A stretch of DNA of 64,000 bases from Isurus oxyrinchus. Its lineage: Eukaryota. The stretch spans positions 4,464,001-4,528,000 of the forward strand of contig JANJGN010000042.1 of assembly GCA_026770705.1 (NCBI GenBank). The letters run 5' to 3'. The notes beneath the pieces are model-generated. The model saw only the letters and a program-made list of their open reading frames with translations, was not told the origin of the DNA and ran no database searches. Numbering within the stretch: position 1 is the first letter of the stretch; each line of letters opens with the position of its first letter. This document shows positions 6,774-42,813 of the stretch, piece by piece. A program made the translations under genes and the position numbers.

Positions 6774-6810
6774 ATTTATACCTAATGTCAGGCTCCTGGG
6801 AAATAATGAG
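6774..6810 (-). promoter_or_regulatory. Putative proximal promoter of copy A: homeodomain core, O/E-like site and TATA
   Basis: Plus strand CTCCTGGGAA (6793-6802) lies next to TAATGA (6804-6809). TATAAAT is on the minus strand at 6780-6774. The layout is homologous to the region upstream of exon D. Confidence 0.5.
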
Positions 6811-7769
6811 TCGTTCTGATCTTGCACAATAATTACAGTGATTGAAGCAAACAGATGAGTAATGATGTTAATGTTTTGAAGGACAGGAAAGTATTTTTCA
6901 CTGATGCTACTCTAAAATGGAATCAATGCAAAATACAATAAGATGCTAGAAGATAATTAATAAATAAAATAGACATGTGCAATCGTGAAAACGAGCATTG
7001 TACAAGCGGAATCCCTCAAGAATTACTCAAGTTGATTCAACATAATGTATAACTGACTAGAGGTCTGAAAGGCTCATATAGCCAACTTCTAGCTCCTGAA
7101 CATTATTCAGCCCATGTGATCACTGATAAAGTTGCAACGTGGGTCCAAATCTCCCTGAGACTGCAAACCCACTTTACCAAAGTGGTCTGTCTATGCAGTT
7201 CTACTCCAACATATTCTCCGTGCAAAGACTTAGTTCTTTGTGATTACTTCCGGTGCCCACTTTCCCTGATAAGTTTAATCATGTTCAATGTTTAGAATTA
7301 TGGTGAACAACAGCAGTCCAGTAAATTTACTTTCAATCATGACAATTCCAATTCAGTTCAGCACAGTTACATGCATTGTGCACAGCTTCAGTTAATCATG
7401 GCTTTATTCAGTGTGCTCAAGCCGGATTCAGCACGGTAACTGTAGGAATGAGCTGTCTCACCTCACTGGGATTATAGTTAGCCTGAAAGAAGGGCAGAAC
7501 ATGCTGGAACAACTTCACATGAATTCTAGCACCTATAGGCGTGCAAGCTGTGGGATCTGATGAATATTTCCATCATGCTAAGGCCTGTTTTGCTGTTATG
7601 ATTTCAGATTTCCAACATCAGTTATAGACGGCTTTTATATTTTGTATGAACAGGATTAGTTTAGTAAATATTCACTCAGTGTTAACATAACTAGTTTAGC
7701 ACAGTTACACTCCTTGTACCGAAGCCGAATTATGTAAAACAACATTGTGTCTGCTCTGATCTTCTTCAA

Positions 7770-8380
7770 CATGTTTGCGTGCATTATGTATAAACATCAC
7801 ATTTATTCTAACCTCCATGCCTGATGTCCTCGACTACTTAACCAGTTTCCAGTTTCCTAGCCCAAATCCTTCCCCTTTTACCATAGACACCAAACTGGTT
7901 ATCTCCCATTGCCCACGCGGGATATCTGCTGGCTCTCTCCTTTCTTTCTTCACGAAGGACCCAACCAGTTGCCATTCATCGACACAATCCTCCACCTAGT
8001 TGAACGCCTTCACACAGAGAACACCTATTTTAACGCCAATCACTTCCTAAAAATAAAGCTTTCATTTTGGGCACCCTCATGGTTCCGAGATAGGTCTGCC
8101 TCTTGTGAAACATTCTTTGTTCCAGTCACACTCAGGCCACCACCATCACCTCTCTTCCAGAAGCATTGACAGTGTCAATGCTTTTTCCTGCACGCACTCT
8201 GAACTGGGAAATGACTTGATATTTGTTTCAAATTTGACACTTCCCGTACCTCATCTGATACGTCTCCAGCTGTTCCATTCCCTTATTCGACTTTGATGTG
8301 TACATTTGTAGGGTTGGCCTATTTTCCAATATTCACTGTGACATTACAAACGCAAATGCATATCTTGACTACAAGGCCGT
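7770..8380 (+). mobile_element. Penelope-like element, degenerate RT fragment
   Basis: Fragments LDYLTSFQFPSPNPSPFTID and TILHLVERLHTENTYFNANHFLKIK resemble vertebrate Penelope RT. Confidence 0.7.
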
Positions 8381-8439
8381 ACAGACCTCTTTTTAAATCA
8401 CTCTGTTAAATTGATAATCTGATGGTGGTGAGGGCGTGG

Positions 8440-9910
8440 GCAGAGGGATGTTGGGAATAGGCTGTCTGTATTGAATTTGGTTCTGTATCAGTACAGGATG
8501 AGCTGCATTCAAGGATACTCGGGGAAGTGAGGTTGGAAATTGCTGAGGCATTGACCATAATTCCATACTTTCCCTTCGAATCAGGGATGGTTTCACAGGA
8601 CTGCAGACTGGCAAACTTTACAGCTTCGTTAAAAGAACGACTGATAATATAAACGCCAAAAACCTATTTGCCCGTCAGTTTATCTTTGGTGCTTGAGAAA
8701 CTTCTAGAATATCAATTTGAGGCAAACTAAATCATCACATGTACAAATGCGTGGAAGCTCAGGGAACCAAGCATGGATTCCTTAAGGGGAGATCCAATTA
8801 ACTAACTTGCTGGAATATTTTTCTAGGAGTTAACGTAGCTGTATAATGCAGCAAAAGCTATTTATGTGGTGGAAGTACACTTGTCAAAGGTCAATTGATA
8901 CAATACCGCATAACAGACTTGTGAGCAACATTATAGCCCATGGCAGAAATGGGAAAGTAGCAACATGGATACGAAATTGGGTGACCGTGTTCGAGATTAG
9001 AGGTTCATCGTTTTATTTTGAGGGCTGGAGGAAGGCTTGCCGTCGTGTTCCCCAGGTGTCAGTGAGAATGGCTTAGAATTCCGAAAGGCATTGGACATGT
9101 TGCTGGGATGGGAAGGCAGGTGGGGTTCAATGCGGATAAGTGTGTTTTTATTCCTTCTGACAGGACCACCATGGACAGACAATGTAAAATAGCATCCATA
9201 AATTAAAGGGGTTGCAAGAGCTGAGGGATCTGGTTGTATATGTACATAATTCATTTTAATGTTGAATGACAGCATGAGAGAGCGATTAACAAAACATATG
9301 CTGTCTTAAACTTTATGAGTAGGGGCACTGATTACACGAGAAATGTGGTTATGCTGATTTCTTGTAATATACGAACTCTACCTCAGCAGGTGTGTTACGT
9401 CCAGTTCTGGGCGCCCACACTTTAGGAAGCTTCTGAAGGCATTGGAGAGGGTGAAAACATAATTGACGAGAATGGTTACAGAGATGTGGAACTTCAGCTA
9501 TTGTGATGATCGGAGAATTGCTGTTTTATTCAGAGAAAGGAAGGCTGAGAAGATTGTTGAAAGAGCTGCTCAATCACGAGGGATCTTGGGAATTAAATAG
9601 GGAGGACTATTCCTACTCCTGAAATAATCAAGAACTTCCTGGTACAGATTTAAGTTAATTGCAACAATTAGCAAAAGGAGAAAAGGCTTTTTCACGCAGC
9701 AATGCTTAAGATCTGGAAAGCAGTGCCTGGGAATATCATGCAAGGAAGTTCAATAAAGGCAATCGCAATGGAAGTAGATTGAAAAGGAAGTACGTGCTGC
9801 GTTATAGGGAGAGGACGGTAGAACGACACTTAGTGAATTGTTCATTCAAACAGCTGATGCAGACAGTGGGGGTCGAATTGCCTCCTTCTGTTTTGTAACA
9901 ATTATGTGAG
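8440..9910 (+). mobile_element. Old CR1-type LINE, RT to 3' end
   Basis: ORF 8846 reads IDTIPHNRLVSNIIAHGRNGKVATWIRNW. A CR1-like 3' end (cctccttctg...tgtaacaattatgtga) lies at ~9880-9910. Confidence 0.85.
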
Positions 9911-9929
9911 TATTTGGAACCTAAACAGA

Positions 9930-10590
9930 AAATAAATTACAAATGCAGGGAGGTCGTGTTGGAGTTGTATAGAAACCTGATTTCTTGTAATATACGAACT
10001 CTACCTCAGCAGGTGTGTTACGTCCAGTTCTGGGCGACAGAGGAGTATTGTTTACAGTTCAGTTCGCCACATTATAGGAAGGATGTAATTGACTGGAGGG
10101 GGTGCAGAGGAAATTCACCAGGATGTTGCCTGGGATGAAACAGTTAAAGTATAAAGAGAGGTTGGAGAGACTTGGGTTGTTTTTGTTGCAATAGAGAAGA
10201 CTGAGCGGCGACATGATCGAGGTGTACAAGATTATGAGGGGCATGGACAAGATGGATAGGGAGCAGATGTTCCCGTTAGTTGAAGGGTCAGTCACGAGGT
10301 GACGTAAGTTCAAGGTGAGGGGCAGGAGGTTTAAAAGGGATGTGAGGAAGACTATTTTTAACCAGCGGGTGGTGATGTTTGGAATGCACTGCATGGGATG
10401 GTCTTGGTGGTGGGTTGCCTCACACCCTTTAAAAAGTATCTGGCTCTGTACCTGGCACGTCATAAATTCAAGGCTATGGGCAAAATGCTGGTAAATGAGA
10501 TTAGGGAGGTAGGTCAGGTGTTTTTCAGGTGCCGGTGCAGACTCGATTGGCCTAAGGGCCTCTGATCCACTGTGATTCTGTGATTCTGTC
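9930..10590 (+). mobile_element. Younger CR1-type LINE 3' end
   Basis: Reads INYKCREVVLELY...EYCLQFSSPHYRKDV and ends in a tgtgattctgtgattc tail at ~10570-10588. It is homologous, in inverted orientation, to 48500-50295. Confidence 0.9.
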
Positions 10591-11799
10591 TGAAAATATC
10601 ACAAGATATAGAAACTCATATTGATGATGTTGTACAGACTCTCCAGGTCTTATTGATATGTAATTTGCCCCAATTTCCGCCGAGAAACAAGGAATAACAT
10701 TTTCATTTCCTACCTTTTTTTGCAGTTGGCACAGAAAGAAGCTCGTAATAGGGCATTTTTGAAGGGGGAAAACCAGATTCGAAATGCATTGCATTCGCTG
10801 GTACTCATGAGAAGTATGAAGGAGACTGGGACTGCTGGTATGCATCTATGAAAATTTAATATTACCATAGTGCAAATGCACTTGCTATGTTGAAAACAGT
10901 GTGCCCAATGTGGTTGACGTGATGCGTCATGTGTGTGGGTGAAGAGAGTTAGCATGCTTTGCGCTCTTGTAGAGCAGTTGGCTTCTCATTATTAGCCCTC
11001 GTTGTTGGCTAGCACTGATGTGAAAATGACAGCCAAATGTGTAAATCTCTCCCCTTCAGCAAGCAGCCTCTACATCGACAAGTCCTCAGTGTTGTCTCTT
11101 CGTGACAATACCCAAGAGCCTGGACCCTGGCGGTCTCAGACTTAAGCTGCAATGCAACACGGTGTAGGGTTGGCATACCTGCATTCATGAGTAATACTGC
11201 CAACTACAGTAAAATGGCTTCACAGCATTGCGGATATGTTGGGAGAGTTGAAGGCCCCCTTGTGAAACTTGACAAATAAAAATCAAAGAAATTGATTTGG
11301 GGCCTAAAGGAGGGCTGGTGTCCAAACAAAACATCTTCCCCATGGTTGCGCCCTGGAAAGTAGAAGCCAATTTCACTGCCGATCATTAACACAACACATC
11401 TCTAATCAATAGAATTAAGTAATGCAGATAACAATGGACTAGTTTCCGATATCAATGAAAGATGACAGTGTAAATATTAAAACATGAGACGATCAACAAA
11501 TAGAACTCTTGCTGCTGGTCGGGAAATGGATACAGTTGGCTCCACTGGGCCTCAAATTAAAACCTGTTATAAGAACATCAAGCTCCCATATTGGCGTTGA
11601 ATGAAATTAATTATCTAACATCCCCAGTTACTGGCTGCTTCTATCCTTACTCACTATGGACGAAATCGAGTCTCACTAGCTTGCATCTTCATGCCTGCCC
11701 CGTTTTCCCTGAAGATTCCCGGTCGATGCACACAGTGTTACCGTCTCCAGCCTCCACATTTCACAATCTGCTGAAATTTCCGCCAGCTCCAGCGTGATG

Positions 11800-12060
11800 A
11801 CCTCACAAACGAATCGAACCCTGACCTTTCAGATTCTCGAAGGGACCGTTCTCTCCGCTGCCCGCTGCTCCATTTGTAAACAATCCTCCACAGATCATCC
11901 TCTTCTGCATCACCTTCATGATGTGCAACACCTTCCCATTTACGCCCATTTTCTTCCAACTGACTTCCACACATGCTTTCCATGTATATACAGTGAATTG
12001 CTTGAACATATTCCAATCTATCACATTCTATTTGCTGGTCGTTGTGCTGCATCCTGTACT
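11800..12060 (-). mobile_element. Possible ancient non-LTR RT fragment
   Basis: ORF 11803..12024 has WKKMGVNGKVLHIMKVM, resembling the K-x-G-V/I-x-G-K-x-L-x-I-I segment of LINE RTs. Confidence 0.35.
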
Positions 12061-12889: not shown

Positions 12890-13160
12890 ACCTGTACTCA
12901 CAGAGGGAGATTGCAAATAGGCTTACAATAAACAGGATAAAATTAGTCTGGAATACACAGTTGGAGTAGTACCTTTAAATGAATGCATTAGATTTTGAAG
13001 GTAATTCAGGAAGGGAATTGGATTGCGACCTGAAAGGAGAAAATGTGCATGGTTACGAGGGTAATTCAGGGGAGTGGGATAGGAGGAATGCTCTTTCCGA
13101 GACCCAGTGCACTCTATGAATCGAAATGACTCCTTCTACGCTGTAAAGTCACTGTGACTA
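12890..13160 (+). mobile_element. CR1-type LINE 3' fragment
   Basis: Homologous to 9690-9910 (ctggaatacac...ctccttctacgctgtaaagtcactgtga). Confidence 0.65.
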
Positions 13161-14194
13161 TTTAGTAAGTCCACAGTTGGTTCAACACAAAAGGTGGGCT
13201 TGGAATGGCTGAATTGACCTTTCTTCTACAGAATAAAACTGCAAGAGACGAAGGGTTATCAGTTGCATCTGACACTCTTGGAAATGGTTATGATTCAGTT
13301 AGTTTTAGGGTATCTTGTTTGTTTTGCATATATCAGTGACGTCCCCAAACTTTTCATTGTGTGAATATTGTGGCCTTATTGATATAGAAAAAGATAAGGC
13401 CACAATATTAAGGCGTGATACAAAATATAATGAGGTTTAAGTGAAAATACACCATGACAACGTACAACATAATATCATGGATGCAAGGGAAAATGTATTT
13501 AAAATGCAGTAGATCCAACTTGCAGAGGTAATACCTAAGGTTAAGCTATAATGTATTGCCCTGTAAGAGGCAAGAAAGAGGAAGCAATGCCTTAGTTATT
13601 GTAAAAGTACTTGAAGTGATAACGCAATGGTATAAAGTACAACATAGAGTATTAAGAATGTTGAAGCAGACGTTTAAAATAGAATATGATATTTTGAAGA
13701 GATGACAGAAAGGTTAAATGCAACAAAACTTACATCAAATAATGAGAAGGGCACTGGTCCAAACACCAACCCATGTGGAACAGCAATGTTAAATTCCTCC
13801 GGTTTGTAACAAAACATAAAGCAGTTACTTCCTGTTCCATGTTTCCTGAATCTTGAAGTAATGAGGACGCCACTCGGCAACTATCCCTTTCATCCAGCCT
13901 ATTTTAGATTTGCAATAAAGAGAATTTTATCAAATGTCATTTGCGAGGTCATACTAACTGCACCAACTATAGATCAGCCACAAAAACTCTTACGTAGCTT
14001 ACAAACATTTCACATCAGTTAGGTACATTTTATTGCAACTGTACATAAATATAGTTATCAGTATTTTGTACTGCATTCTAAAGTAGCCGTTTTGGTTAGA
14101 GTGCACTATTTTGACTTAATTAGCATAAGCATGAAGATGTTTGCGTTAATTTGTTTGTTCATATGACTGTTATTAACAGTTTTGATTTTGCACG

Positions 14195-14231
14195 CTAATT
14201 GCCCCTCTAGCGTTGAGCATTAGATATAAAT
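14195..14231 (+). promoter_or_regulatory. Putative proximal promoter of copy B
   Basis: CTAATTGCCCCTCTAG (14195-14210) is identical to 42777-42792 upstream of copy E. TATAAAT is at 14225-14231. Confidence 0.6.
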
Positions 14232-14292
14232 GGATGTGCCAAGAGGCTGAAATCAGAGGGAAGAGGACACTAGCATATTGCTCTCACAGAAA

Positions 14293-14362
14293 ATGCATGC
14301 TCCAGGAAATGGACTAGTTTTTGCCATTTATTATTCCACTCTTGCTGCTTTCGGAGATCCAG
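14293..14362 (+). pseudogene. GPCR copy B, first coding exon (MHAPGNGLVFAIYYSTLAAFGDP)
   Basis: ATG at 14293, 70 nt, donor CCAG|GTAAAC at 14362/14363. Same length and phase as exons A, D and E. Confidence 0.9.
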
Positions 14363-16107: not shown

Positions 16108-16985
16108 CTAACCTAGAGACGATTGTGATCCTACCCCGAGGAAGGTGAGGTCTGTCCAGATGTATCACTTACTACTTGGTATCCATGGCGGTGATGGATC
16201 TCCTTGTCATTATTACTGCTGTGATGTTAAGCCGGCTTCGCACTATCTTTTCCAACTTAGTTTCCTCTCCATTACCCCTGCCTGCTGCTTAGTTATTGTC
16301 CTCAGCTGCACTTCCGGAGACAGTTCTGTCTGGTTAACAGTCGCGTTCACCTTCGATCACTTCTAGGCATTTTTCTCCCAGCAGCTGAAATTGAATTACT
16401 GCACTGGTTAGTGGAATGGTCTGTCTGCTGTTCTGCTAGAAAAACTCCCCTTTTTATTTCATATATGAACCTATGTATATCAATAACTTACCATGACAGT
16501 GCAGAATTAAAGGAATCATTCATAATTCCGTCGCATGGAGGCTGCCTGCCTGTCTGGACCGTATTCAAACTCCATGTCTCCCTTTCATCCTGATTTTTCT
16601 GCTCAATATACTGACAGCCAGAGATATTCTATCAGCCAGTCGAGCCCGGGGGAGACTCCGAGCCCAAAACAATAGACAGAATCAAAGCGACCCAGAGATG
16701 GAGATCTGCAGAAAGTCCATCAGTTTACTTTACACCATCTCTGGTAGTTTCCTTCTGCTTTGGTTGACATATGTTGTAAATTTCCTACTTCTGCAAATTA
16801 CAGTCAACAACTATTCAGTAGGTTCTAATTCCAATGACCCGAAATTTATTCTGAAGGAAAGCGGGTACATCCTTCAACTCTTGAGTTCCTGCACCAATGC
16901 ATGTATTTATGCAGGGACCCAGAGTAAATTCAGAGGAGAGTTGAAGGATGCAGTTAAATATGCTATAAATCTAATTAAGAAATAA
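16108..16985 (+). pseudogene. GPR139/GPR142-like GPCR copy B, exon 2, multiply disrupted
   Basis: Acceptor tttgtttaacag|CT at 16107/16108. Reads ANLETIVILPRGR*GLSRC (TGA 16146-16148), then a frameshift near 16245-16260 and DHF* (TAG 16364-16366), with a deletion near 16407. The tail DPEMEICRKSISLLYTISGSF...NACIY...SKFRGEL is intact to TAA at 16985. Confidence 0.93.
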
Positions 16986-18189: not shown

Positions 18190-19610
18190 TATATTTATAG
18201 GCCATGACTTAACACCATTGGAGGTGAAGCAGTTCAGAGTATGGGCAGTAATGGAATAAGTCATTACACAGGGTAAAAGGAAGAACATACTCCTGGATGC
18301 TCTAATTTTGAGAAGGGCAGGCCAAAAGGTAATAAAGACGTCTGGCAGAGCAGAAAATAAAGGATGAATCACCACATTAGTGACAGAGGATCTTAGGTCA
18401 GACGAAAAAGATGTCCTTTCAGTTTGGGTGGTTATAATAGACAGCAAGGACCAAAACATTTCGTAGGTGTTGTTTATAGGCAACCAAATAGTTTTATGGC
18501 AAAGTGAAAATCAGGAAATAAGAGGGAGATTTAAATCTATATATCGACTGGGTTATCCCAATGAGCATTACTGCTTCGGGTGATTTACTGTAGTGAGTAC
18601 GAGGTGGTTCACTTGAGCAGGATGTTGAGGAAGCACCAAGGAAAAGGTAATTTTAGGTGCAGCTTTGTGCAATGAGAGGGTGATAATTAATAACTTTGTT
18701 GTAAAAGAGCCATTAGGGAAGAGTGACCATTGAATGAAGTTTGTTCAATTAAGTTTGAAAACAATAAAGTTCAGTCTAAAACTAGAATCATATTCTAATC
18801 AAAGGAGACAATGATGATATTGGGGACACTTTTCCTGTGATTGATTAGGAAAGCACATTTGAATTTAAATGACAGTAGGCATGCAATGTCTAGCATTTAA
18901 ATAACTAATACATACTTTACAAGAAAAACAATCCCCAACGGCGGAAAATCCTAAGGCAAACTTTGAATAACCAGCGGCTATCAGTGGAGGTTAAAAATTG
19001 TATGGCAGGAAAGAAAGAGATATACATCTACCAAACAAAAAGCAGCAAGCCCGAGGGTTGGAAGCATTTTAGAATTCATCAACGGCAGACCAAGAAACTC
19101 GTCAAGGAAGGGAGAATAGAAGGCGAATGCAAACTAACGAGAAACATAAAAACAGACTAACAGTTTCTATAGGTCTGATAAAATTAAAAGTTTATCAAGT
19201 GGTTCAATGGGGCTGAGTAAGGGAAATGTATGATGAAACACATGGAAATGGCAGCGGAGATAAATAATTACATTGTCATTGTCGTCACAGCTGAAATTAC
19301 CAGAAGTCCCTCAGGAGTAATATAGGGCCAACGGGCCAGTTAGAATCAGGAACTGAAGGAAATTACTATCTGTGAAAGAAAAGTATTTGTTTAAATAGTG
19401 GGATAGAATGTCTACAAATCCCAGGGCCCTAATGATCTACATCCCAGGGTGTTAAAAGAAGCAGCTACAGAGATAGTGGATGCATTGGTGTTGACCTTTG
19501 CACTTCTATACATTTTCAAACAGTATTTGCGTAGAAGAAGTTTCTCAGTGTGACCGCACTATTGAAAGAAGGAAGGAGAGTGAAAACGTGGGACTTCAGA
19601 CCTGGAATCA
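18190..19610 (+). mobile_element. CR1-type LINE ORF2, endonuclease/linker region, degenerate
   Basis: Remnants of CR1 motifs: gtaggtgttgtttataggc (VGVVYR), ttagggaagagtgaccat (LGKSDH) and aaatcccagggccctaatgatctacatcccagggtgttaaaagaa (KSQGPNDLHPRVLKE). Confidence 0.8.
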
Positions 19611-24670: not shown

Positions 24671-25500
24671 TCATTTAACAATCCAGCACATGCCTTAGTT
24701 CTTTTGCGCAACTTCCTCTGACTCCATCCAGAATTACATATGTTGTTGCAGCGGCTCAGGAGCAGCAACATGTCCCCGCTTCCTTTAGCACTAAACTTGG
24801 GGTAATTTAATTATAACATGTGAGATATGAACTACTGCAGTTAGCTCATCTACAACGCTTACAATCATACTGCCCACAGCAGCTGCCTGAAGGGTAAAAT
24901 GACTGAATTTATCTGGTTCTCCGTCTCTGGCTCCCTCTCATTCTTCCCATTGCTTTTGGTGCTACAGAGTCCAGCAGGTTTCACCATCAGCGAATTGAAT
25001 GCATGGAAGATTAAACATTTGAGATAAATAATGAAAGAAATGGAATTAAGTGGCTAAAACACGATCGACCTAGTCGGTTCTTATTCCTGCAAATGAAATA
25101 TAAAATTCTAATTCTATTCTTCCAAATGAGTAACGTTGTTACTGACCTCCAGGATTCCTGTACAATTTATCTCTGATTTTTGTTTTCATCTTCTTAATGG
25201 ATGCAACGAACCTAGGGGCATTTCTCCGAGAGGAATATTGCAACTTCATATTCGGGCAACAAACACAAATGTATCCACCGAAGGTGAAAGTGACTGATAA
25301 CCAGACAGAACAATCCTCAGGTTGTATATTGAGTGTCGTGCTGACGTCATCGGCTTGTCTGGTGAACGCTAAACTAACCCACGCATAAATACCAGTCATT
25401 GAATACAAGCAGCAGCGATAACATCATTTGTTTTGTCGTTGCCATGAATGCGGAGTGATGCAACTGGAAAGAACACCGCCCCCTCGAGAGAGGACCGCAA
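24671..25500 (-). pseudogene. GPR139/GPR142-like GPCR copy C, heavily degraded exon 2
   Basis: Colinear minus-strand remnants: AVLSRGGGVLSSCIT, DCSVWLSVTFTFGGYICVCCPNMKLQY, NEREPETENQINSVILPF (cf. NQSDPEMENRRKSIVLLF) and PKFSAKGSGDMLLLLSRCNN...QRKLR (cf. PKFILQESGNVLQLLSCCTN...QSKFR). Confidence 0.85.
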
Positions 25501-26029
25501 AGGAGAATAATCATCATTTTTTGCGGACCAGAAAATAGCAGGATAACTGCTGCTCAGACCGAGAACAATAGCATCAGATTAGAAGTACTCACCTCGATGT
25601 TTGGAGATTTCTTATATAAATATGTAAAGTTATGCTGTCATTCCTGGAGTAATTTGTGATTATTAACTGGATTTATCTTCTTCAGTTGAAGTTATTATTC
25701 CTATATTTCGAACGTCAATTGCATAAATAGAATGTTTGATTTGAAAGGAGTCAAATCTATGCTGAAGTTGCAAAGCGGCACCAAATTACTGCAAAATGCA
25801 ATGGGACGAATTTCCAACTGAAGGATTTTCAGTTATTTGGCCGGGACGGTGAAAGAAATCTTCTCTCCCATAGAAATAAACCTTGAACATTCTGTATATG
25901 GTGAATTTCCCTTTCTTTCTTGCTGAACCGATCACGGTCACCAATATACATTGCATCCTGGTTCCTCCCTTCCGACGAATCCCATCCTAATTTCCAACAC
26001 TGCTCCCATTCAAATACATCTCAATTCCT

Positions 26030-28461: not shown

Positions 28462-28670
28462 NNNNNNNNNNNNNNNNNNNNNNNNNNNNNNNNNNNNNNN
28501 NNNNNNNNNNNNNNNNNNNNNNNNNNNNNNNNNNNNNNNNNNNNNNNNNNNNNNNNNNNNNNNNNNNNNNNNNNNNNNNNNNNNNNNNNNNNNNNNNNNN
28601 NNNNNNNNNNNNNNNNNNNNNNNNNNNNNNNNNNNNNNNNNNNNNNNNNNNNNNNNNNNNNNNNNNNNNN
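28462..28670. other. N-run (gap or hard-masked simple repeat)
   Basis: 209 N, with tctaaccac on both flanks. Confidence 0.95.
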
Positions 28671-32305: not shown

Positions 32306-33055
32306 TACTGAATTAAAGCTTACCAGCTGAATATAAGAGTCCTGATTTCAACAATGATGAAGAATATGCATCGTCCCATCATTGAATTGAACTGGTCCAT
32401 CATGAGTGGAATGACGCTGATCAGGATATGAACATACAGAATATACCGATACTGAACTGGTGCAGAGTTCACTGAAATTGCATACGGAGACAGGGCATGT
32501 CAGCAACAAAGGTGAGCGTAAGCTATGGCTTTGTTCACACTGAACATAAAGGTTTTCTAGTGGGCCGGTTCACAGTCAAGTGTACCTGAAAACATTGAGT
32601 TATACCGGCAATGCCCTGGGCAAGCCTGCACTGAATTTGTTGTGAGGAATTGAATCTATTCGCACAGAATAAATCATCTTTAACCAGGCTGAACCAATGA
32701 ATACACAGGCTGTTGAGTTAAAAGGTTGTAAAATTTCAGTGATATTTGGAATAATCGTGCATCTGATTTGAGATACCACTGATTAACGAAAATGAGTTAA
32801 AATCTTTTTGAATTTTCTTAAGGAGAAAAAAGCATTGAACAGTACTCTGGCCTCAACCCAAAATCTGGGCATTCATGTTTTTGTTCAAAGTAAGTAACGA
32901 GAAGCATCCTGCTATTCATGTTAGAGTCCTGTGTTAGGTCACCTGGAAAAAAATAACAACCAACGATTTCCATCAAAACATAACCACCAGCAAAGCAGCT
33001 GCTGCACTTATCTGTTTGCAACAGTCAAAGTAATTGAAACAAAAAATCAAACAAA

Positions 33056-33077
33056 CTAATTATTTGCCTGGAGCCTA
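33056..33077 (+). promoter_or_regulatory. Putative promoter remnant of orphan exon D
   Basis: CTAATTATTTGCCTGGAGCCT aligns with copy A upstream (CATTATTTCCCAGGAGCCT on the minus strand) at the same distance (~-87) from the ATG. Confidence 0.5.
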
Positions 33078-33142
33078 TGGAGAGGTGTAACATTGTGCAA
33101 TTTCCAGTAGATTGTAGAACGCACGCAGAGCTTCGGTTAGAA

Positions 33143-33212
33143 ATGCACGGGTTAACAACAAGCCTGGTGTTTGCCATTTAGTATCCCGTAATTGGAGCTA
33201 TTGGAGTTCCAG
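33143..33212 (+). pseudogene. Orphan GPCR first exon D (MHGLTTSLVFAI*YPVIGAIGVP)
   Basis: ATG at 33143, 70 nt, donor CCAG|GTAAAG, TAG at 33179-33181 in place of Tyr. No exon 2 was found before the next first exon at 42870. Confidence 0.88.
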
Positions 33213-34334: not shown

Positions 34335-35850
34335 TGAACGCACGAGTTAAGAGTAGTAACAGGCCTTTTAGCCTCTCGAGCCTGTCTCATTATTTAATAA
34401 GATCGTGTTTGATCGGATTTTAACATCAACTACACGTTGTCACCTCCCCCCAATAACCTTTCACCATTGACACCTCAAGATTCCATCTACTTCTGCCTCA
34501 AAAATATTCAAACGGCGGGATTTTTCGGCCGCAATTGCAGCCGGGATTATCTGCTCCTGTGGAAACCCAATAACTTTTGGCTGTGCTGCAGAATCTCACG
34601 TAGTGGGCTCTGCCACAACGGGACGGCAAACCCCCGGCAAATTGTATTGTTTCCACTGCCTTTTGTAGAAGAGTTCCAAAGACTCACAACCCTCTGAGGG
34701 AGGAAAAAAGAACTTACCTCTGGCTTCAGTGGGCGACCCCATATTATTAAACAGTGGTTCCTAGTTCTAGGTTCACACACAAGATGAAACATCATTTCCA
34801 CATTCAACCTTCCTAGTCTCTTCACGATCTTATATGATTCTATCACATTGCCTCTTACTTATCTAATCTCCAATGGCGGCAAGCCAAGACTGTCCAACCT
34901 TTCCTCATAAGACACCCCACCCATTTCCATGGAGTAGTGTGATAAACATTCACTGAGTTGCATTTAACGCATTTCCAACATTGCTTAGATAAGGAGCCCA
35001 ACACTTACACTGTTACATATGTTGCCTCACCAAAGCCCATTATAATTGAAGCAATATCTCTCAACTTTTGTATCAAATTCCCCTTGCAATATACAATAAC
35101 ATAATATTAGCTTTGCTAACTATTGCTGCACCTGTACATTGACATTCTTGATTCATGCACTAGTGCAGGCCGATCCTTCTGCATTTCAAGCCTCTACAAT
35201 CACTCACCATTTTGAAAGCATTCGTCCGTCAAAATTGGCCAATTTCCCATTTTGCAACACTATCGTGTATTTGCCTGAACTTTGCCCGCCCTCTTAACAT
35301 GTCGGTATCACTTTGTTGCCTCCTTATATCCTCTTCATAAATTACTTCCCAATTTATTTTTGTGTCGTCAGCAAATTCAGCATTCAGGCCATTGGTCCCT
35401 TCATCCATGTTATTTGTATAAATTGCAAAAATTTGATAGCCCAGCACTGATCCATATAGCACACTAGTCGTCATATCCTGCCAACTGGAAAGTGATGCCT
35501 ACTATCTTTTTCATGTTTGCTTTCTAATCTTCTATTCATGCCAACATGTTACGCTTTACACCATGAGCTTTTATTATCCACAGTATACGTTGATGAGGCT
35601 CCTTATAAAATGCCTTCTGAAATTCTAAGTACATTACTTTCACCGGTTCCCCATTATGCACAGCACTTCACTTCTTCAAGGATCTCCAATAAATTCGTGG
35701 AACATGATTTCACTTGCACAAACAATGTTGATTCTGCGTGATTATATTGAAATTATTCAAGTGCCCTGTTATAACATCTTTAACAATAGCTTCTAACATT
35801 TTCATGATGGTAGAAGTTAATCTTACTGACGATGGTTTCCCGCTTTCTTT
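34335..35850 (-). mobile_element. CR1-type LINE RT to 3' end
   Basis: ORFs read VLYGSVLGYQIFAIYTNNMDEG...EFADDTKI and MIESYKIVKRLGRLNVEMMF...FFLPQRVVSLWNS. Confidence 0.88.
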
Positions 35851-35864
35851 CTGGAGAGAGAAAA

Positions 35865-36755
35865 CAAAACATTCTGGAGGAAAAACTGTCCGCTGGTTGG
35901 AATCATGCCTAGCACAGAGGGAGATTGTGATTGTTGAAGGTCAATCATCTCAACTCCAGAACATCACTGCAGGAGTTCTTCAGGGAAGTGCCCTCAGCCC
36001 AGCCATCATTAGCTGCTTCATCAGTGACCCTCCTTCCATCATAAGGTCAGAAGTGGGGATGTTCACTGATGATTGCACAATGTTCAGCACCATTCGTGAT
36101 CCGTCAGATACAGAAGCAGTCCATGTGTCAAATGTAGCAAGATCTGCAAAATATGCAGGCTTAGGATCACAATTAGCAAGCATGTTGCGCGCCAAACATG
36201 TGCCAGTTAATGACTACCTCCAACAAATAAAAAATCTAAACATCGTCCCTTGACATTCAATGGTGTTACCATATCTGAATTTCGCCCCCACACGCCACCC
36301 ACCACACCGCCGCCCCCCCCCCCCCCCACCCCGCGTTTGAATGGCACTCCATCCACGAACCATTCTCTCTCTCCAATACCCACGCATGGTAGAACCTGTG
36401 TGTACTATCTACAAGATGGATTGTAGGAACTTACTATAGCTCCTCAGGTAACACCTTCCACACCCAAGTACGCTGCCATGTAGAAAGACAAGTGCAGCAG
36501 ATACATGGGAGTACCATCACCTGCAAGTTCCCCTCCAAGTCACTCACCATCTTGACTTGGAAATATGTCGCCATTCCTTCACTGTCGCTGGATGAAAATC
36601 CTGGTGCCCATTTCTTAATAACATTATGGGTGTTCCTACAGCACAAGGATATGAATAGTTCAAGAAGGGATCTCTCTACCTTCTCAAGTGTAATTATCAA
36701 TGTGCAACAAAGACTATCCTGGCCAGCGTAGCCCGCCTCCCGTGAATAAATTGAA
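35865..36755 (+). mobile_element. CR1-group LINE (SINE-partner family), RT fragment and 3' end
   Basis: Reads WLESCLAQREIVIVEGQSS...AGVLQGSALSP...GMFTDDCTMF; tail tggccagcgtagcccgcctcccgtgaataaa. Confidence 0.88.
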
Positions 36756-36759
36756 GAAA

Positions 36760-37214
36760 ACAAAAACGTAATAACTGTACCTGATACATGTTCATTCAGT
36801 GCTCGGACCTTACAGAGGTGTTTGCACATTGTAACCTCTCTATTCCACTGAACGGGCTACCTGACTCCTGGAATCTAACTGTCAGCTACGAGGCACCTTT
36901 TCCTGTCTGACCCGCACGATAATTCTTACTTTGATGAGTCAAAACAATAAGTTTCTTTTTGGGTTTTTTTGTATTGAATCAAAGGGAAATTTAAATTTTT
37001 CAGTTATATTTCCCAGAGACTGACCCGCATGCTACCATCCAACTGGACAGCAGAAGGGAGCATGTACCACCATGATCGTTCCTGCTGCTGGATGCAAGAC
37101 TCAAGCCATTCATGAACGAATGCCCCCAAACCGACGTTTTCCCACTCAGTAAGAATCAGCGACTTAATCCCAAATCTGCCTTCTGTATGTGGATCCACTT
37201 ACCCAAACATATGT
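36760..37214 (+). repeat. Local segmental duplication, copy 1 (paralog of 42190-42620)
   Basis: Colinear matches include tctctattccactgaac, cctgctgctggatg, tcaagccattcat, aatcagcgactta, cccaaatctgcct and tggatcca. Confidence 0.9.
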
Positions 37215-39084
37215 TATGTTATGTATCTACATCACATGCATTGCATTTGTTCCAAACCCAGCTCACCATCAGCTTCTCTATGGCAATTAGGGATGGCCAA
37301 AAAACGCTGGTCGAGTCAGCGACACCCACATCACATTATTGCTTTCCATTTTTATCCTGTACAACTGAGAATGTTATTAGCTGAAAAGACATTGAATTTG
37401 AAATAATAGGGAGAGAAAGCGCTGTGAAACTCCGAGAAATCAACATTTTCAGGCCCAGCCTCTTCCAACTTAGTTTGCTGTTTATAACTGTAATATTTCA
37501 GCAGTGTCCTCCTAACTTTATTGTCTAAAGTGTCACCAAACGCCCGCCCATTGTTTGTTTTTGCATCGAAAATTTCGAAACAATTCAAAATATATGTCAG
37601 TTTCCCAGAATTCCTGACCTTGCAACATCTGCATAAGATGTTGCTTCATCTCTTTACGCTATCTAGATTGGAGGGAAATCAAGAGCTTAACGTTTTCTAA
37701 AGATGATGTTTTTAACAGTGCAATGCAATAATTTGTAGCATTAAATTTAGATAGCATTTAAGGCATTGGTAGAACTAGAAATCAATAATCACCAATTGTT
37801 CCTTCGGGGACTGAAAGGTTCATTTCTGTCATGTGTTCTACACACTTTTCACATTTGTCATGTTCTGGACTGCTTCGTGGACTGCGTCCCCTCCGACGTT
37901 AGAATAGATGTTCTATCGATATTTATATTGAGAAAGCAGTCCATTTGCCAGCACCTACTTTAAAGTCGTTGTGATGAAAGTTCATCACGGCCCTAGGCAA
38001 TTATCTCTTACGCCCTGTGGTTTTATAAGACTTTCTGGCACAGAGAGTGCTTGCAAGATTTTGATTAAAGAATGGCCTTACTTTCTCGATGCTCCTTTTG
38101 AATTAGAAAGCAGCAACTGCAATGGAACTGCTCAATAAACAATAAAACATAGGCGTAATTTCTTTCCATCCCCTTCCAATCAGCCCTGCTATAAATCCAA
38201 GCCTGCTATTTCTGCCAAGTTTTCAGCTCTTGAAAGTGGTTATGCCGTTGTCCCCTGTGCCGATCTCTCTTTGTTTTTAATCACAAGCACACAGTCTGAA
38301 TGATACCCAGCGTTTGTTGGTTTGTCATTAATGAATGGAATTACTGAAATTGATGCGCTGGATGTGTCTGTGGGATTTCAGAGGATGCCATTCTGACCCT
38401 CCATCCTGTCCTTCCAATCTAATATATAATGGCTTTTATGTCTTTTATCGGCATCTACCTGCATTGGCTCCGTATGTTATGACCTGACTCGCAAGAATTT
38501 TTCTCTCAGAGATTTGGAATTATTAAATGAAGCAAAATTTTCTGTTTATCAAGGGAGGCAGGTCCACATGTATGTTTGTTCATGAGGACGTATTTCTTAG
38601 CGTCTCTCATGAATGGCGTGACTCTCATTTAACTACATGTTCACATAGCTTAGACTTCACCAGCGGTGATCGTATTGAATGGTGACACATGATTGAGTAG
38701 CCATATTGGCGACTCATGTTTGTAGTCGTTATTTTAACCAGTCTGTCGACATAGCTACAGTACCCACGCCTTTGTATCATACCAGAGATTATATTGCACT
38801 GTTTAACTAAAGTCTTAAACGTTTCCATGACTTCTGCACCCAGATGTGAACAGAATTATGCAGCTGAGATGAAAATGGTAAGTTGCAAATTCTGGCCATG
38901 ATTTATTTGACTTTTTTCTCTTTCAGTCTGCAGCGTTACTCAATAAAATTTTCCATTTGCTTCTTGAAAACTTATTACTGTTCACAGATTGGTACAAATG
39001 GTTTCCCTGGTATTCATTTTAAAATTCTGCCACTTCATTTAATTGGCCCTCCCACATTCTTCCTAACCCAATTTAACATTTCAA

Positions 39085-39260
39085 CATGGTGATGTCATGG
39101 AACAGGTAACCCCGAAGCTTCGAAACAATCCTGGGGACATGGGTTCCAATCCCACAAGGGAAGCTGGTGGAATGCAAATTCTAAGTAATAAAAGACAGTC
39201 TGAGTAATGATGACCAGGAAACATTCATCGCCAGTTGTAAAAGCAAATGGTGTTTACTAA
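39085..39260 (+). mobile_element. tRNA-derived SINE, 5' half
   Basis: ctggggacatgggttccaatcccac (B-box-like) followed by ggtggaat...taatgatgacca; homologous to 40853 and 54316. Confidence 0.7.
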
Positions 39261-40099
39261 CAGAACAAGAAAACAGAAAATGCATGAAAAGCTCAGCAGG
39301 TCTGGCAGCATCTGTGGAGAGGGAACAAGAGTTAGTCAGTGCAACTTTGTGTTGGCCGTCTTCCATCGAGGATAGGTGATGAATACGCAGTGAGCAATCC
39401 ATTTCGATTTTGAATTTGTGCACCATTGCTGTGGGTATGTAGGCCCCGTCACAAGTGCTGCAGTGCAGCTGCCACGTGGCTCTGTGGTATCTTACTTTTG
39501 CTTTTGGAGCCAGCTGTGATGCAGGTGTAGCCACTTTTTGTTATGGTGGTGAAATGGAGTGTCAATATTTCCATCTCTCGCCAACGAGTAGCTTCATTTT
39601 CCGAACGCCCTTGTTTATGGCCTCATGTCACACTTGCTGGAATCCATGAGGCTCTGCTCCCTCACCAATTGGAAAATTTTTGCTTAAAGATCTGTCATCC
39701 ATCCGCTGAAGCCACTTCCGTAAGTTTATTTGCAAGACCTTTGGGAGTTCTGAGAAGACTACATTATTCATGCTTTTGTTGTGCTAGATCATTTCATAAT
39801 TCAATATAGAATGTAAAGCTGTAAATTATTGAGCGTCTTTTCCTGCTTGCTGTAAATTGCATATGTTTCACTGCCTGCCGGAAAGGTAATCTGAACACAT
39901 GGCTTACAAGCCATAATCATGGTTCTAAATGTCAGCTTGGTATTATCCAACCTGCATTTCGCGATTCAGCCAATGCCTGAAGCTGCTTCCCCTATTTCCA
40001 TATCTCGAGCTCAGCATTCGGGGACAGATTGCCTCTTCCTTGGATTCATTCCGCAAGTAGATGGAGTTGTTTCAGTGTTGACCTAGCAAAGACCTTCAG

Positions 40100-40560
40100 T
40101 TTTACTTTAAGGAATTAAATGCCACAGTAGTTTTTTTTTCATTCTCTCTGACCTATTTTTTGTGCAACATGATGAATTGGCGGGATGTATTGCTGGTGAA
40201 ATGGAGCTTACATTCCAACAGAGCAGGAGAGGGTCATAAAGGTGTAGCAGTGGATGTGATGTAGAGTGCTCCAGCAGTTCAGCAGGGAGTCCATCCGTCT
40301 CGGACGCCCTTCTGTTAGTTGTGTGTTTATGGCCTTCTCGAACTTAAGTGATAATGGTTTTTCATCTAAATTATCCATGATAGGGAGTTGCCAAAGAGTG
40401 CCAAGGGCAAACCGAGAGATGTCTGTCTCTGAGGATTGCAACTCCGTGTACTGCTCAACCCAGCAGCACTACTGTTTCTTCTGTCGGTGAGGACTATCCA
40501 TCCATCGTCGGGGAGCAACTTTGATGATGGCAGGGGAAAACGCCCTCTTGATTATTTGGT
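40100..40560 (-). mobile_element. RTE-like LINE RT fragment
   Basis: ORF 40208..40441 reads PIMDNLDEKPLSLKFEKAINTQLTEGR, resembling the start of RTE RT domains. Confidence 0.55.
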
Positions 40561-40852
40561 CCATGGCTCATAGGTTTCCATTGTCGAAATGTATTCTTTT
40601 TTTGCCATAAGCGAATCACGTGTTTCTTTCTCTCTGTGTCTCCCTATCTTTTGTACATCTAATTTAGCACATTTCAGGCCGTGTACTATTTCAGTTATTA
40701 GACCTATGTTGTACACATTCGGCAAGCTTTGTTCTTTGGATCAATGACAGGTCTCGTCTTACCTGATTCAGGCTCAAACCAGCCCTTGTTCTGGGTTCAG
40801 CACTTAACAAATGACGCTTCTGCTGCGTCACAGATGAGTGAATTGGGTCATT

Positions 40853-41215
40853 TGGTGGAAAATGGTAATTCCCTAGACTAGCAATCTAGAAAGTCTAACC
40901 AATGATCTGGGAACATTGGTTTACAAACCACCATGGCAGATAGTGAAATTTCAATTAAATTAATATATCTGAAATAGTAATCATGTCATACAGAATCGAT
41001 TGCTGTAAAAAGCCAACCGATTCACTCATCGTTTACGGAAGGAAATCTGCCGTCCTTACCTGGTCTGATTTACATGTGACTACAAGCCTCCAGCAATGTT
41101 GTTGACTTATAGATGCCGTTCGAAATAGCCTGGCAAGATACTGAGTTAAAGTGCCAGTAGGAATGGGCAACAAATGATGGCCTTGCCACAGGTGCACACA
41201 CCCATGAAATAATAT
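40853..41215 (+). mobile_element. tRNA-derived SINE, near full length
   Basis: Head ggtggaaaatggtaa...gactagcaatc, body ggaaggaaatctgccgtccttacctggtctg, tail ggaatgggcaacaaatgatggccttgcca...cccatgaaat. Confidence 0.8.
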
Positions 41216-41419
41216 TTTTTTAAAAATCTTCGATTATTCACATACATAATGTTTTTAAGTATATATTCCGGTTTAGAAGTGGTGTATCTGACACATGGGT
41301 GAATATTCCGTGGCTGTGTGAATATTGCCAGTGGTGCTTCAGACAGGTTTAATTTATTTTATTCCCGTACAAAAATGGGTGAACATGTCGTAAGCTACAT
41401 AGCCAACCGATATTAGCAC

Positions 41420-42190
41420 TACATGTAAGTAACATTAGTGCAACAACAGTGCCAGGCAAGGACAAGAGAGAATCCAATCATCTCCTCTTTGTCTTCAGTG
41501 GTGTCACCATCGCTGAATCCTCCAATATCAACATCCTGGTCTTTACCGTTGATCAGAAACTGAACTGGGCTAGCTGTCTTAATACTATGGTTATAAGAAC
41601 AGATCAGAGACTGGTAATCCTTCTGAGGGTAACTCACTGGCTGACTCCCAAAATTCTGTCCACCATTTGCCATGCACAAGCCAGGAGTGTGATTTAATTC
41701 ACTCCAATTGTCTGGGTGAGTGCAACTCTGATGACACTCAAGTAGCCCTACACTATCCTGGATAAAGCAGGCCGTTTGATTGGCACTCTATGCACCATCT
41801 TAAACATACACTCACTCTGCCACCGACGCACAGTGGCAGCTGTGTGTATCATCTACAAGATGCACTGCAGGAGCTCACCAAGGTTCCTTCGAAATACCTA
41901 TCATATCTGCTACAAGGAGACGGGAAAGAGCAGCAGATACATTGGAGCACCAGCGCCTGCAGGTTCTCCTCCATGCCACACGCGATCTTGATTTGAAATG
42001 ACACTGACCCTCGATCTGTGTTGCTGGGTCAACTCCATTCACCATTGTTAATAGCACAATGAGTGTCCCTGCAATACACGGATGTCAGCGGTTCAAGAAG
42101 GGAGCTAACAATCTTCTCAAGGGTAATTATTGATGTGCAATAAATGCTGGCGCAGCCAGCGACGACCACGTCACGAGGATGAATAGAAAA
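41420..42190 (+). mobile_element. CR1-group LINE (SINE-partner family), 3' part
   Basis: Reads SNINILVFTVDQKLNW and HSLCHRRTVAAVCIIYKMHC; tail gcaataaatgctggcgcagccagcgacgaccacgtc. Confidence 0.85.
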
Positions 42191-42620
42191 ATGCAATGCA
42201 ATGATGCACCTGACACATGTTAATTCAGCACCTCCACTGTACAGAGATGTATGCACATTCTAAACTCTCTATTCCACTGAACTGGATTCGGTCTGTCAGT
42301 TGCAAAACATCTTTTACTATCTCGCTAGCGCCGTCATTCATACTTTGAAGAGTCTAAACAGTATGCTTTTAATTTTTCATTGAACCAAGAAAAAATGGAA
42401 CTTTTTTCGGTTATATTTTCCACAGATTGAGCTCTATGCTCCTCCTTATCTGGAAAGCAGAAGAGGGCGACTAGTTCCATGAGCGCTCCTGCTGCTGGAT
42501 GTGCGATTCAAGCCATTCATCAACGAATGCCCGAGACCTACCTTTTCCCTCTCAGCTTTAATCAGCGACTTAAACCCAAATCTGCCTCCTGTGTCTGGAT
42601 CCATTTACCCAACAATATGT
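42190..42620 (+). repeat. Local segmental duplication, copy 2, immediately upstream of the promoter of intact copy E
   Basis: Colinear with 36760-37214; both copies follow the same LINE 3' end. Confidence 0.9.
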
Positions 42621-42776
42621 GGAATTATGAAGAGCTGTTATGAAAAACGCCTTCCAGTTTCTAAAAAAAGAAACAATTTTTTTCTCTAAAATATACATTT
42701 ATTAAAACAATTTGTTAAATGATTGTCTGACCATCTTTCTTCAAATGATTGGAACTAATGAACTCGATGTTGTCAT

Positions 42777-42813
42777 CTAATTGCCCCTCTAGAGATTAGC
42801 TGTTTGTATAAAG
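42777..42813 (+). promoter_or_regulatory. Putative proximal promoter of intact copy E
   Basis: CTAATTGCCCCTCTAGAGATTAG (first 16 bp identical to copy B) at -93 from the ATG; TATAAAG at 42807-42813. Confidence 0.65.

Follow-up and report, generated by a model that had tools for sequence, protein, structure and literature searches.

A 97-bp module was found 5' of each of the four known first exons (A, B, D and E) in a tandem cluster of class A GPCRs resembling 'probable GPR139' in the window, i.e., the whole 64,000-nt stretch of lamniform shark DNA that was analyzed. The four promoters compared, all from one species (Isurus oxyrinchus), stack without gaps from offset -60 to +36 (offset 0 is the C preceding a homeodomain hexamer), and the order of the module is TGTTTG at -43, a homeodomain core at -25 to -21, the homeodomain hexamer at +1, an O/E-like half-palindrome 2 bases on and TATAAA at +30. 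Judged from these alignments, the module is very probably a real conserved promoter. The best explanation may be that EBF and a LIM-homeodomain protein use it to control a chemoreceptor family that has been overlooked, a reading to which we give just under an even chance.

Of the five cluster copies, only E is intact; A, B, C and D are broken pseudogene relics, and three of the first exons (those of A, B and D) thus lie in pseudogenes. The exons are as follows:

4276..5186, minus strand, exon 2 of A (single in-frame stop at 4935-4933, within the DRF/DRY motif)
6654..6723, minus strand, coding exon 1 of A (23 codons plus 1 nt, GT donor; ATG at 6723)
14293..14362, plus strand, coding exon 1 of B
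16108..16985, plus strand, exon 2 of B (pseudogene with 5 stops and deletions of 1, 17 and 3 nt)
24691..25513, minus strand, exon 2 of C (strongly decayed)
33143..33212, plus strand, orphan exon 1 of D (ATG at 33143; stop at codon 13)
42870..42939, plus strand, coding exon 1 of E (MHTPTNNPVF...; start nearly identical to the horn shark ortholog P0002)
51097..52004, plus strand, exon 2 of E (intact, 7tm_1)

Exon 2 of E shares 96% identity with a white shark 'probable GPR139'. Gene A, judging from its lone in-frame stop, is a recent pseudogene or a broken allele. DNA and protein profile searches of the window found neither an exon 1 nor a promoter for C (an N gap at 28462-28670 could conceal one) and recovered only A, B, D and E, with no fifth promoter or first exon; a search of the window for an exon 2 belonging to D was also negative. 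The parts of the module are located as follows:

6774..6870, minus strand, promoter module of A (offset 0 at 6810; gapless in the four-way stack)
6847..6853, minus strand, forkhead-like TGTTTGC of A, preceded by an E-box CATCTG
6830..6835, minus strand, upstream homeodomain core TAATTA of A (-25)
6804..6809, minus strand, homeodomain hexamer TCATTA of A (inverted TAATGA; element start at 6809)
6792..6801, minus strand, O/E-like 10-mer of A, TCCCAGGAGC (8/10)
6775..6780, minus strand, TATAAA of A at +30
14135..14231, plus strand, promoter module of B (offset 0 at 14195; TGTTTGT at 14152, TTATTA at 14170)
14195..14210, plus strand, 16-mer of B, identical to that of E (TAATTG at 14196-14201; O/E-like site at 14204-14213, 7/10)
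14225..14230, plus strand, TATAAA of B at +30 (CATTAG just before it, as is also seen in A)
32996..33092, plus strand, promoter module of D (offset 0 at 33056; TGTTTGC at 33013, TAATTG at 33031, TAATTA at 33057)
33065-33074, plus strand, O/E-like site of D (8/10), with a decayed TATA (TGTAAC) at 33086
42717..42813, plus strand, promoter module of E (offset 0 at 42777; TAATGA at 42756, TGTTTGT at 42801)
42777..42795, plus strand, 16-mer and O/E-like site of E (TAATTG at 42778-42783; O/E-like CCTCTAGAGA at 42786-42795, 8/10, with a palindromic core)
42807..42812, plus strand, TATAAA of E at +30 (transcription start predicted at about 42835-42842)

TATAAA stands at exactly +30 in A, B and E, and TATA is decayed only in D (TGTAAC at +30), the copy without an exon 2. 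Exon 1 begins 57-68 nt past TATA in the four genes and the element lies 87-98 nt before the ATG, which is the position of a gene promoter and not of an intergenic enhancer. If transcription starts near TATA+30, there is no upstream ATG in any of the 4 leaders. The modules have a GC content of 0.33-0.37 and 3-5 TAAT/ATTA cores each; several homeodomain cores in AT-rich DNA, with a TATA box in a subset (here 3/4), are features of OR-type proximal promoters. TAAT cores are common in DNA of 33-37% GC and are bound by many homeodomain proteins. A repeat origin was rejected, as the window contains no additional copies of the module. Rfam gave 0 matches.

The first-pass annotation had reported an exact 16-mer shared by B and E at -98 and -93, elements of A and D at -86 and -87, and TATAAA after the element in A, B and E. 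All of these observations were reproduced: CTAATTGCCCCTCTAG is present exactly twice in the window (14195 and 42777), the elements of A and D start at 6809 (minus strand; ATG at 6723) and 33056 (ATG at 33143), and the three TATAAA share one distance from the C before the hexamer. The module itself proved larger than had been claimed for the four first exons, and the surrounding DNA, which had been called unalignable, can be aligned over the whole 97 bp; alignment fails only beyond -60 and in the intron.

An exact 16-nt match occurred in 4 of 4,756 random 300-nt pairs of the window, with six promoter pairs inspected, and the probability of a run of 16 per pair is 0.0006-0.002 for a neutral identity of 0.5 and 0.0045 for the 0.57 identity seen between the flanks of B and E. 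Without the core, the flanks showed 222 pairwise matches out of 474 (0.47) against a shifted-register mean of 132 (0.28), a value reached in 0 of 19,345 cases, and zero offset was the best of 81 offsets in five of the six pairs. The stretches -120 to -61 and +37 to +56 are at background identity, and no alignment among genes was found in the introns (z mostly under 2). A TAAT/ATTA core with TATAAA at +30 was found at only 3 places in the window, those of A, B and E, out of 67 TATAAA. In a 37-row tree, A, B and E each pair with their own horn shark relative (SH-aLRT/bootstrap = 90.7/90, 100/100 and 99.9/100, respectively), and the wider clade of A (100/100) includes Heptranchias and Pristiophorus sequences; an 86-row tree, a quick version with long-branch warnings, was used for orientation only. 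By these pairings, A, B and E represent distinct subfamilies of ancient origin, whose split preceded the divergence of horn shark and lamniforms, so the module is very probably a conserved proximal promoter. Four-fold sites have an identity of 0.48-0.60 between copies, and the flanks are no less substituted than these sites (identity 0.47), so constraint outside the motifs is visible only as the absence of indels.

The element could instead belong to a 5' untranslated intron as its splice acceptor (YTNAY branch point, pyrimidine tract and AG), with the promoter further upstream. Its invariant CTNAT equals the branch-point consensus and the B/E 16-mer terminates in TAG, but CTNAT is merely 11-14 nt from the AG and no AG column is common to all four copies. 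The AG of E, which has a YTNAY 34 nt upstream and no other AG for 59 nt or more, reaches the 94th percentile of 7,912 AGs by a crude score, whereas true exon-2 acceptors lie at the 98-99.7th percentile, the element AGs as a whole at the 77-94th, and the AG before the ATG of E at the 55th. Out-of-frame ATGs would also enter the leaders of A and E, and the fixed TATAAA would be left unexplained. We consider the acceptor highly improbable.

Motif scores are counts of matches to a consensus (TCCCYNGRGA for O/E). The O/E match is moderate, with a score out of 10 of 8 in A, D and E and 7 in B, and no site reaches 9; the site had been described as good in A and weaker in the other three, which is borne out for B while A, D and E are equal. 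O/E alone is at background, with scores of at least 8 in 745 of 1,276 windows of 200 nt. Two bases past TAAT/ATTA, however, such a score was found at only 5 of 1,429 sites in the window, three of the five being the elements of A, D and E, with the 2-bp spacer picked after spacers 0-3 had been inspected. When spacers 0-3 are all allowed, 176 of 2,510 background windows qualify (P-value = 0.001 for three of four promoters, 0.009 with A and D counted once). In column shuffles of the module, the observed sum of homeodomain and O/E scores was reached in 0 of 3,000. The motif evidence makes an EBF plus homeodomain code in the module fairly likely.

Alternatively, the module may be an inherited TATA promoter in which the likeness to O/E is incidental, the GC-rich block being bound by a non-EBF factor (a zinc-finger protein, or CTCF) or being an ancestral residue. 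CTCF acts at clustered protocadherin promoters, and B and E match a CTCF core at 9 of 12 positions (22 such places in the window), but A and D match at only 6-7 of 12. The lack of enrichment of O/E alone fits this alternative, as do the flanks, which are as alike as neutral sites, so some of the shared letters would be plain descent. Old gene conversion over a short tract may also have made B and E alike: the B-E flanks are as alike as those of A-D (45/79), yet exon 1 of B is nearer to that of A (49 vs 40 of 70). The best-conserved form, the 16-mer of B and E, is not the best O/E fit. On the other side, the invariant bases C12, G15 and G17 of the GC block are symmetric, as fits a dimer site, the G between them, which varies, corresponds to the 'r' in the published TCCCyngrgar consensus, and column shuffles seldom give the observed O/E sum (11/3,000). 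An incidental likeness is judged distinctly unlikely.

The element very probably forms the core of a TATA-box promoter that is ancient and constrained in length, shared within an elasmobranch-expanded GPR139-related family. Under the proposed EBF and homeodomain control, the half-palindrome C(C/T)C-NN-G(A/C)G would be occupied by an EBF (O/E) dimer, and the TAAT hexamer, 2 bases 5' of it, by a homeodomain protein of the LIM or EMX type, with the second homeodomain core (-25) and the forkhead-like site (-43) possibly assisting. The bound factors would together recruit TBP, and transcription would start about 30 nt past the TATA box. Such a module would represent the sensory-neuron code of OR, TAAR and V1R genes, in which case the family would most likely be chemoreceptors transcribed in the olfactory epithelium. 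Expression of the family in olfactory neurons, as predicted from the promoter, has at best an even chance.

Homology search yielded 2,672 homologues, of which the best 120 are all elasmobranch; 50 of these 120 belong to horn shark, and 29 of the 120 lie on one 59.5-Mb contig. At least 50 members are present in horn shark, which exceeds the known olfactory families of this shark, and searches of the open literature found no paper on the family in sharks. Among solved structures, human GPR139 is the best match (E = 2.7e-10, 43 bits). The nearest characterized relatives are GPR139, GPR142 and the subtypes named 'GPR210' in fishes and coelacanth (PMC6504862), and databases name the family 'probable GPR139'. 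However, with many copies and only 43 bits to human GPR139, compared with 400-600 bits between its own members, the family does not fit a GPR139 orthologue, which would be single-copy and closely similar to the human protein; it is massively expanded in sharks and rays and single-copy in amphibians and sturgeon. OR hallmarks are MAYDRYVAIC, KAFxTCxSH, PxxNPxIY and LHxPMY. These motifs occur in 0, 0, 0 and 1 of 98 homologues, respectively, and Pfam passes only 7tm_1. By motif and homology, the shark genes are GPR139-related and not ORs.

A conserved promoter of the EBF/homeodomain type could also serve a non-olfactory tissue, such as brain neurons, other sensory neurons, gut/islet endocrine cells or immune cells. 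EBF and LHX act outside the nose (e.g., EBF1 in B cells), and TAAT boxes with forkhead and E-box sites are an endocrine code as well, with GPR142 as a gut/islet parallel. In the modules, the TGTTTG site, which we take to be forkhead-like, is found in three of four, and CATCTG in A. The closest characterized relative and best structural match, GPR139, is described as a brain receptor (PMC6380545), GPR142 is expressed in brain and peripheral glands, and composite motifs also occur outside OR enhancers. But a hormone or neuropeptide receptor needs no 50 or more tandem copies with frequent pseudogenes, and the two nearest lineages are single-copy in bony vertebrates. Variability among the 98 homologues is highest in the N-terminus, TM3, the second loop and the TM6-TM7 region (positions by eye), which also speaks against such a receptor. 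We regard non-olfactory use as rather unlikely.

The large, tandem, lineage-specific expansion with many pseudogenes is the pattern of an olfactory chemoreceptor family. Shark V2R/OlfC genes likewise form a tandem birth-and-death family that varies between species (8-43 V2Rs each), with the many pseudogenes that are a hallmark of olfactory families (PMC10116579). They differ in being class C with olfactory expression shown, whereas the present family is class A and apparently larger in horn shark. According to the same paper, the catshark nose appears to be without ciliated neurons, the OR-expressing type, which would confine a role in smell to the microvillous neurons that sharks possess. In catshark, the 50 most nose-specific transcripts included no GPCR, and V2Rs were absent too (PMC11979771). 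Shark smell receptors are thought to be very few, with 6-13 ORs that are not nose-expressed besides the V2Rs (PMC10116579), and a paucity of GPCRs is noted in PMC8455134. We tentatively propose that sharks and rays smell largely via a fifth receptor family, of class A and with tens of genes per species, which the name 'probable GPR139' has masked, which derives from the GPR139/GPR142 lineage of aromatic-amino-acid receptors, carries an enhancer-like homeodomain-EBF composite in the TATA promoter of each gene, survives as one relic gene in amphibians and in sturgeon, and is decaying in lamniforms. If true, the view that sharks have few smell receptors would be overturned by 50 or more receptors of class A whose promoter is of the olfactory type, a GPCR lineage would have been recruited independently to vertebrate olfaction, and the homeodomain-EBF code would date to the jawed-vertebrate ancestor. 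One composite per promoter at a fixed distance to TATA would offer a compact natural test of receptor choice before long-range enhancer hubs.

The suggestion of an OR-like promoter stood in part: a promoter-like homeodomain/O/E/TATA module is conserved and rarer than chance on a hugely expanded tandem GPCR family, but O/E alone is not enriched, and abutting pairs characterize the OR enhancers of the mouse and are depleted in OR promoters (PMC5608512, PMC12547500 and PMC11643329). The proximal promoters of mouse OR and V1R genes are also AT-rich and carry several homeodomain cores, a TATA box and, near the start, an O/E-like site (PMC3247239, PMC3247230 and PMC12547500), and O/E-like sites lie close to all 39 mouse V1R starts (PMC3247230). 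In mouse promoters, however, the sites are described as enriched but not juxtaposed, whereas the shark module keeps a rigid spacing in paralogs of ancient origin, adjoins a first exon that is coding and belongs to a family unrelated to ORs or V1Rs.

The Lhx2/Ebf composite of mouse Greek Islands has a TAATTR-type hexamer directly followed by a degenerate EBF site of pyrimidines then purines (PMC5608512 and PMC11643329; J element, PMC7804114), and in the shark elements a homeodomain site likewise adjoins an O/E-like site. Mouse composites lie in intergenic enhancers, whereas the shark element is part of gene promoters and precedes TATA by 30 bp. Taken together, the four shark sites agree with the mouse Y5R5 pattern at 35/40 positions in the 1-bp register and 34/40 at 2 bp, while a base-specific score gives 31/40 at 2 bp vs 23/40 at 1 bp, with the mouse control favoring 1 bp. 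The shark spacing is probably 2 bp, unlike the 1 bp of the mouse composite. The published composite pattern (its trailing '[4]' ignored) was matched exactly by none of the four sites (15, 15, 15 and 16 of 17 positions; mouse control 17/17), all of which fail at position 7, the spacer base, a purine in the mouse pattern and a pyrimidine in all four shark sites. Scores of 15 and 16 are common (5.5% and 1.1% of positions), and the pattern was rejected as a discriminator for being too degenerate. As candidates for an intergenic enhancer, nine 1-bp composites scoring 8 or more are scattered through the window, including a pair separated by 112 nt (19323 and 19435).

Translated searches of the window located a second exon in four copies (A, B, C and E), and a first exon likewise in four (A, B, D and E), of the GPR139-like receptor genes, which are laid out as a 70-nt coding exon 1 ending in a GT donor, followed by a long exon 2. 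Among full-length homologues, 95 of 98 start with MH, as the first exons in the window do. Gene E is the only intact copy; its open frame (51006-52001) encodes a rhodopsin-family 7TM domain and shows 96% identity to a protein of Carcharodon carcharias that is annotated as 'probable G-protein coupled receptor 139'. Gene A carries a single in-frame stop, gene B carries 5 stops and 3 deletions, gene C consists of a decayed exon 2, and gene D of an exon 1 that contains a stop, with no exon 2 found for it within the window. The orphan exon 1 D (33143-33212) and the orphan exon 2 C (24691-25513) are arranged head to head. They are probably two relics, because the decay of C far exceeds that of D. 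D could also be a dead alternative first exon serving exon 2 of E. Directly after E, 52155-52253 weakly matches the TM1-loop region of the family (E-value 0.064) and is possibly a further relic. The database model of the white shark orthologue of E (P0001) has 276 aa versus about 324 in the family, and thus seems to lack a first exon of the type found in the window. Identity at four-fold degenerate sites (about 60 per pair) is 0.475 for E-A, 0.508 for E-B and 0.603 for A-B.

The promoter module upstream of A, B, D and E is very probably real, ancient and rigidly spaced. From -60 to +36, with offset 0 at the C preceding the main homeodomain hexamer, the four sequences stack without gaps. The flanks without the core gave 222 of 474 pairwise matches versus an average of 132 after register shifts, and none of 19,345 shifted registers reached 222. 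Similarity is at background level at -120 to -61, -180 to -121 and +37 to +56 (z 1.1-1.3), and z ranges from -1.1 to 2.1 in the first 200 nt of the intron. The 23 invariant columns cluster at -43 to -39, -31 to -21, -10/-9, 0 to 5, 12/15/17 and 30 to 34, and the module contains the following features:

Offset -43 in A, B and D (6847-6853 on the minus strand, 14152-14158 and 33013-33019): TGTTTG(C/T), which we take to be a forkhead-like site
Offset +24 in E, with none at -43 (42801-42807): TGTTTGT
Offsets -25 to -21: second homeodomain core
After offset 0: main homeodomain hexamer, then the GC block, then TATAAA at +30

The loss of TGTTTG at -43 in E and its presence at +24 may represent site turnover. 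CATTAG stands right before the TATA box in A and B and at no other such place in the window, and TGTAAC replaces TATAAA in D, the copy without a second exon. The TATA-to-ATG distances vary (57, 68, 57 and 63), so the rigid part stops at the TATA box. Gene A has a second TATAAA at 6748-6753 (minus strand), 27 nt beyond the first. In a tree of 37 rows (A, B and E from the window and 34 rows that we picked from 412 stored proteins), A, B and E each belong to a different subfamily, and every one of the three includes horn shark members; Heptranchias and Pristiophorus lie within the wider clade of A, and the backbone is unresolved. Because the stack is gapless across these subfamilies, module length has been preserved since early shark evolution. 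Outside the motifs, substitution (0.47) is at the neutral-site level, which means that the constraint visible there is on length only.

The first-pass annotation had described a homeodomain core abutting an O/E-like site in all four copies and an exact 16-mer common to B and E, and all of its motifs and offsets proved correct on re-checking. The 16-mer occurs in the window only at 14195 and 42777. Repeated 16-mers form 24 groups in the window, several of them paralogous exon 2 or simple repeats, so this one is notable for its position. In the other five pairs of upstream 300-mers no shared run exceeds 8-10 nt; of 4,756 random pairs, 4 reach 16. The probability of such a run per pair is 0.0006-0.002 at four-fold-site identity levels and 0.0045 at B-E flank identity. 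As the 16-mer ends in TAG and CTNAT doubles as a branch point, the element might be read as a splice acceptor, but on a crude score across 7,912 AGs its own lie at the 77-94th percentile, against 98-99.7 for three true acceptors, and no AG column is common to all four copies, which leaves this a minor alternative. The upstream ATGs at +21 to +53 avoid the transcript only with a start near TATA+30. CTCF-like binding of the GC block is likewise a minor alternative: scored against CTCF-like cores, B and E agree at 9 of 12 positions, and A and D at no more than 6-7.

The module is probably, if by no means certainly, recognised by EBF and a homeodomain protein. The O/E comparison used TCCCYNGRGA, the core of V$NOLF (as listed in PMC3247239, Table 1): the best register lies 2 bases past the hexamer, with 8 of 10 in A, D and E and 7 in B. 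At a 1-bp spacer A, B, D and E score 7, 5, 6 and 5, and the mouse Sfaktiria composite probe (from PMC5608512, supplement 7), used as a control, reaches 9 at that spacing. Taken by itself, the O/E score is unremarkable (745 of 1,276 windows, each 200 nt long, contain a site of 8 or more), but the pair is rare: among 1,429 homeodomain cores, 5 are followed by such a site at 2 bp, three being the elements of A, D and E. If spacers of 0-3 are allowed, the share of qualifying background windows is 7% (P = 0.001 for three promoters out of four; 0.009 with A and D counted as one), and 11 of 3,000 column shuffles attained the observed O/E sum. Within the GC block, the invariant C12, G15 and G17 are symmetric, and the base that varies coincides with the 'r' that the consensus tolerates. 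None of the four elements matches the composite pattern as printed in PMC11643329; each carries a pyrimidine where the pattern's spacer has a purine, and near-matches occur frequently in the window. Under the looser pyrimidine-purine pattern as given in PMC5608512 the registers are equal (35/40 and 34/40). The element is therefore not a strict Greek Island composite, the mouse OR-enhancer motif, and we leave it outside that class. The mouse composite is described as spaced at 1 bp, with sensitivity to a 2-bp insertion, and as enriched in enhancers, not promoters, whereas the base-specific fit of the shark element favours 2 bp and the element lies in a promoter module. Judged by sequence, it would work like an OR-type homeodomain/O-E promoter. 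Between B and C, two homeodomain + 1 bp + O/E pairs (9 and 8 of 10) lie 112 nt apart at 19323 and 19435 (minus strand), a candidate cluster enhancer in mouse spacing.

The receptor family is large and uncharacterised, and behaves like a chemoreceptor repertoire. A protein database search with E gave 2,672 homologues at E-values up to 1e-10. At a clustering level of 50%, 108 representatives have E-values up to 1e-30. The best 120 of the 2,672 come exclusively from sharks, skates and rays, 50 of them by hand count from Heterodontus francisci (29 on one contig) and 1 from Carcharodon. Branches of the lamniform A, B and E are long (0.24-0.29; horn shark relatives 0.04-0.11) and four of five copies are broken, which suggests decay of the family in this lineage. 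OR hallmark motifs are lacking, with a single match to one of four motifs among 98 homologues. The best solved-structure match is human GPR139 at only 43 bits, and the members are thus not GPR139 orthologues. Of two distant representatives, one belongs to a gene present once in amphibians and sturgeon (25 matches) and the other to a lineage, likewise single-copy, that spans coelacanth, sharks, teleosts, amphibians and reptiles (145 matches); candidate equivalents are the subtypes named GPR210A/B in the text of PMC6504862. Rows P0225 and P0271-P0290 are a single-copy relative in frogs, salamanders, caecilians and sturgeon. Atlas neighbours of the family include FMRFamide-like and Srw-bearing clusters, and lineage-specific class A expansions are described as chemoreceptors in invertebrates (PMC11886862). 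A literature search, with subscription papers mostly outside its reach, found no study of the family or its promoter in sharks.

Olfactory expression of the family has close to an even chance. The strongest alternative is that the module is used in a non-olfactory tissue: as described in PMC6380545, GPR139, the best structural match, is a receptor of the brain for which L-Trp and L-Phe are candidate ligands, and GPR142 occurs in peripheral glands too. Cartilaginous fishes are listed with 6-13 ORs, 3-5 TAARs, 2-4 V1Rs and 8-43 V2Rs in PMC10116579, which describes catshark nose neurons as microvillous almost throughout and reports ORs as not detected there. O/E-like sites are reported in 39 of 39 mouse V1R promoters studied (PMC3247230), so a microvillous setting is compatible with a homeodomain/O-E code. 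The catshark top-50 olfactory list, as presented in PMC11979771, contains no GPCR from any family and is uninformative here.

The window also contains LINE-like repeats:

35732-36250: LINE-like repeat with a reverse transcriptase match
47485-47947, 36334-37214, 41773-42620, 49681-50049 and 10033-10398: LINE-like repeats by self-match
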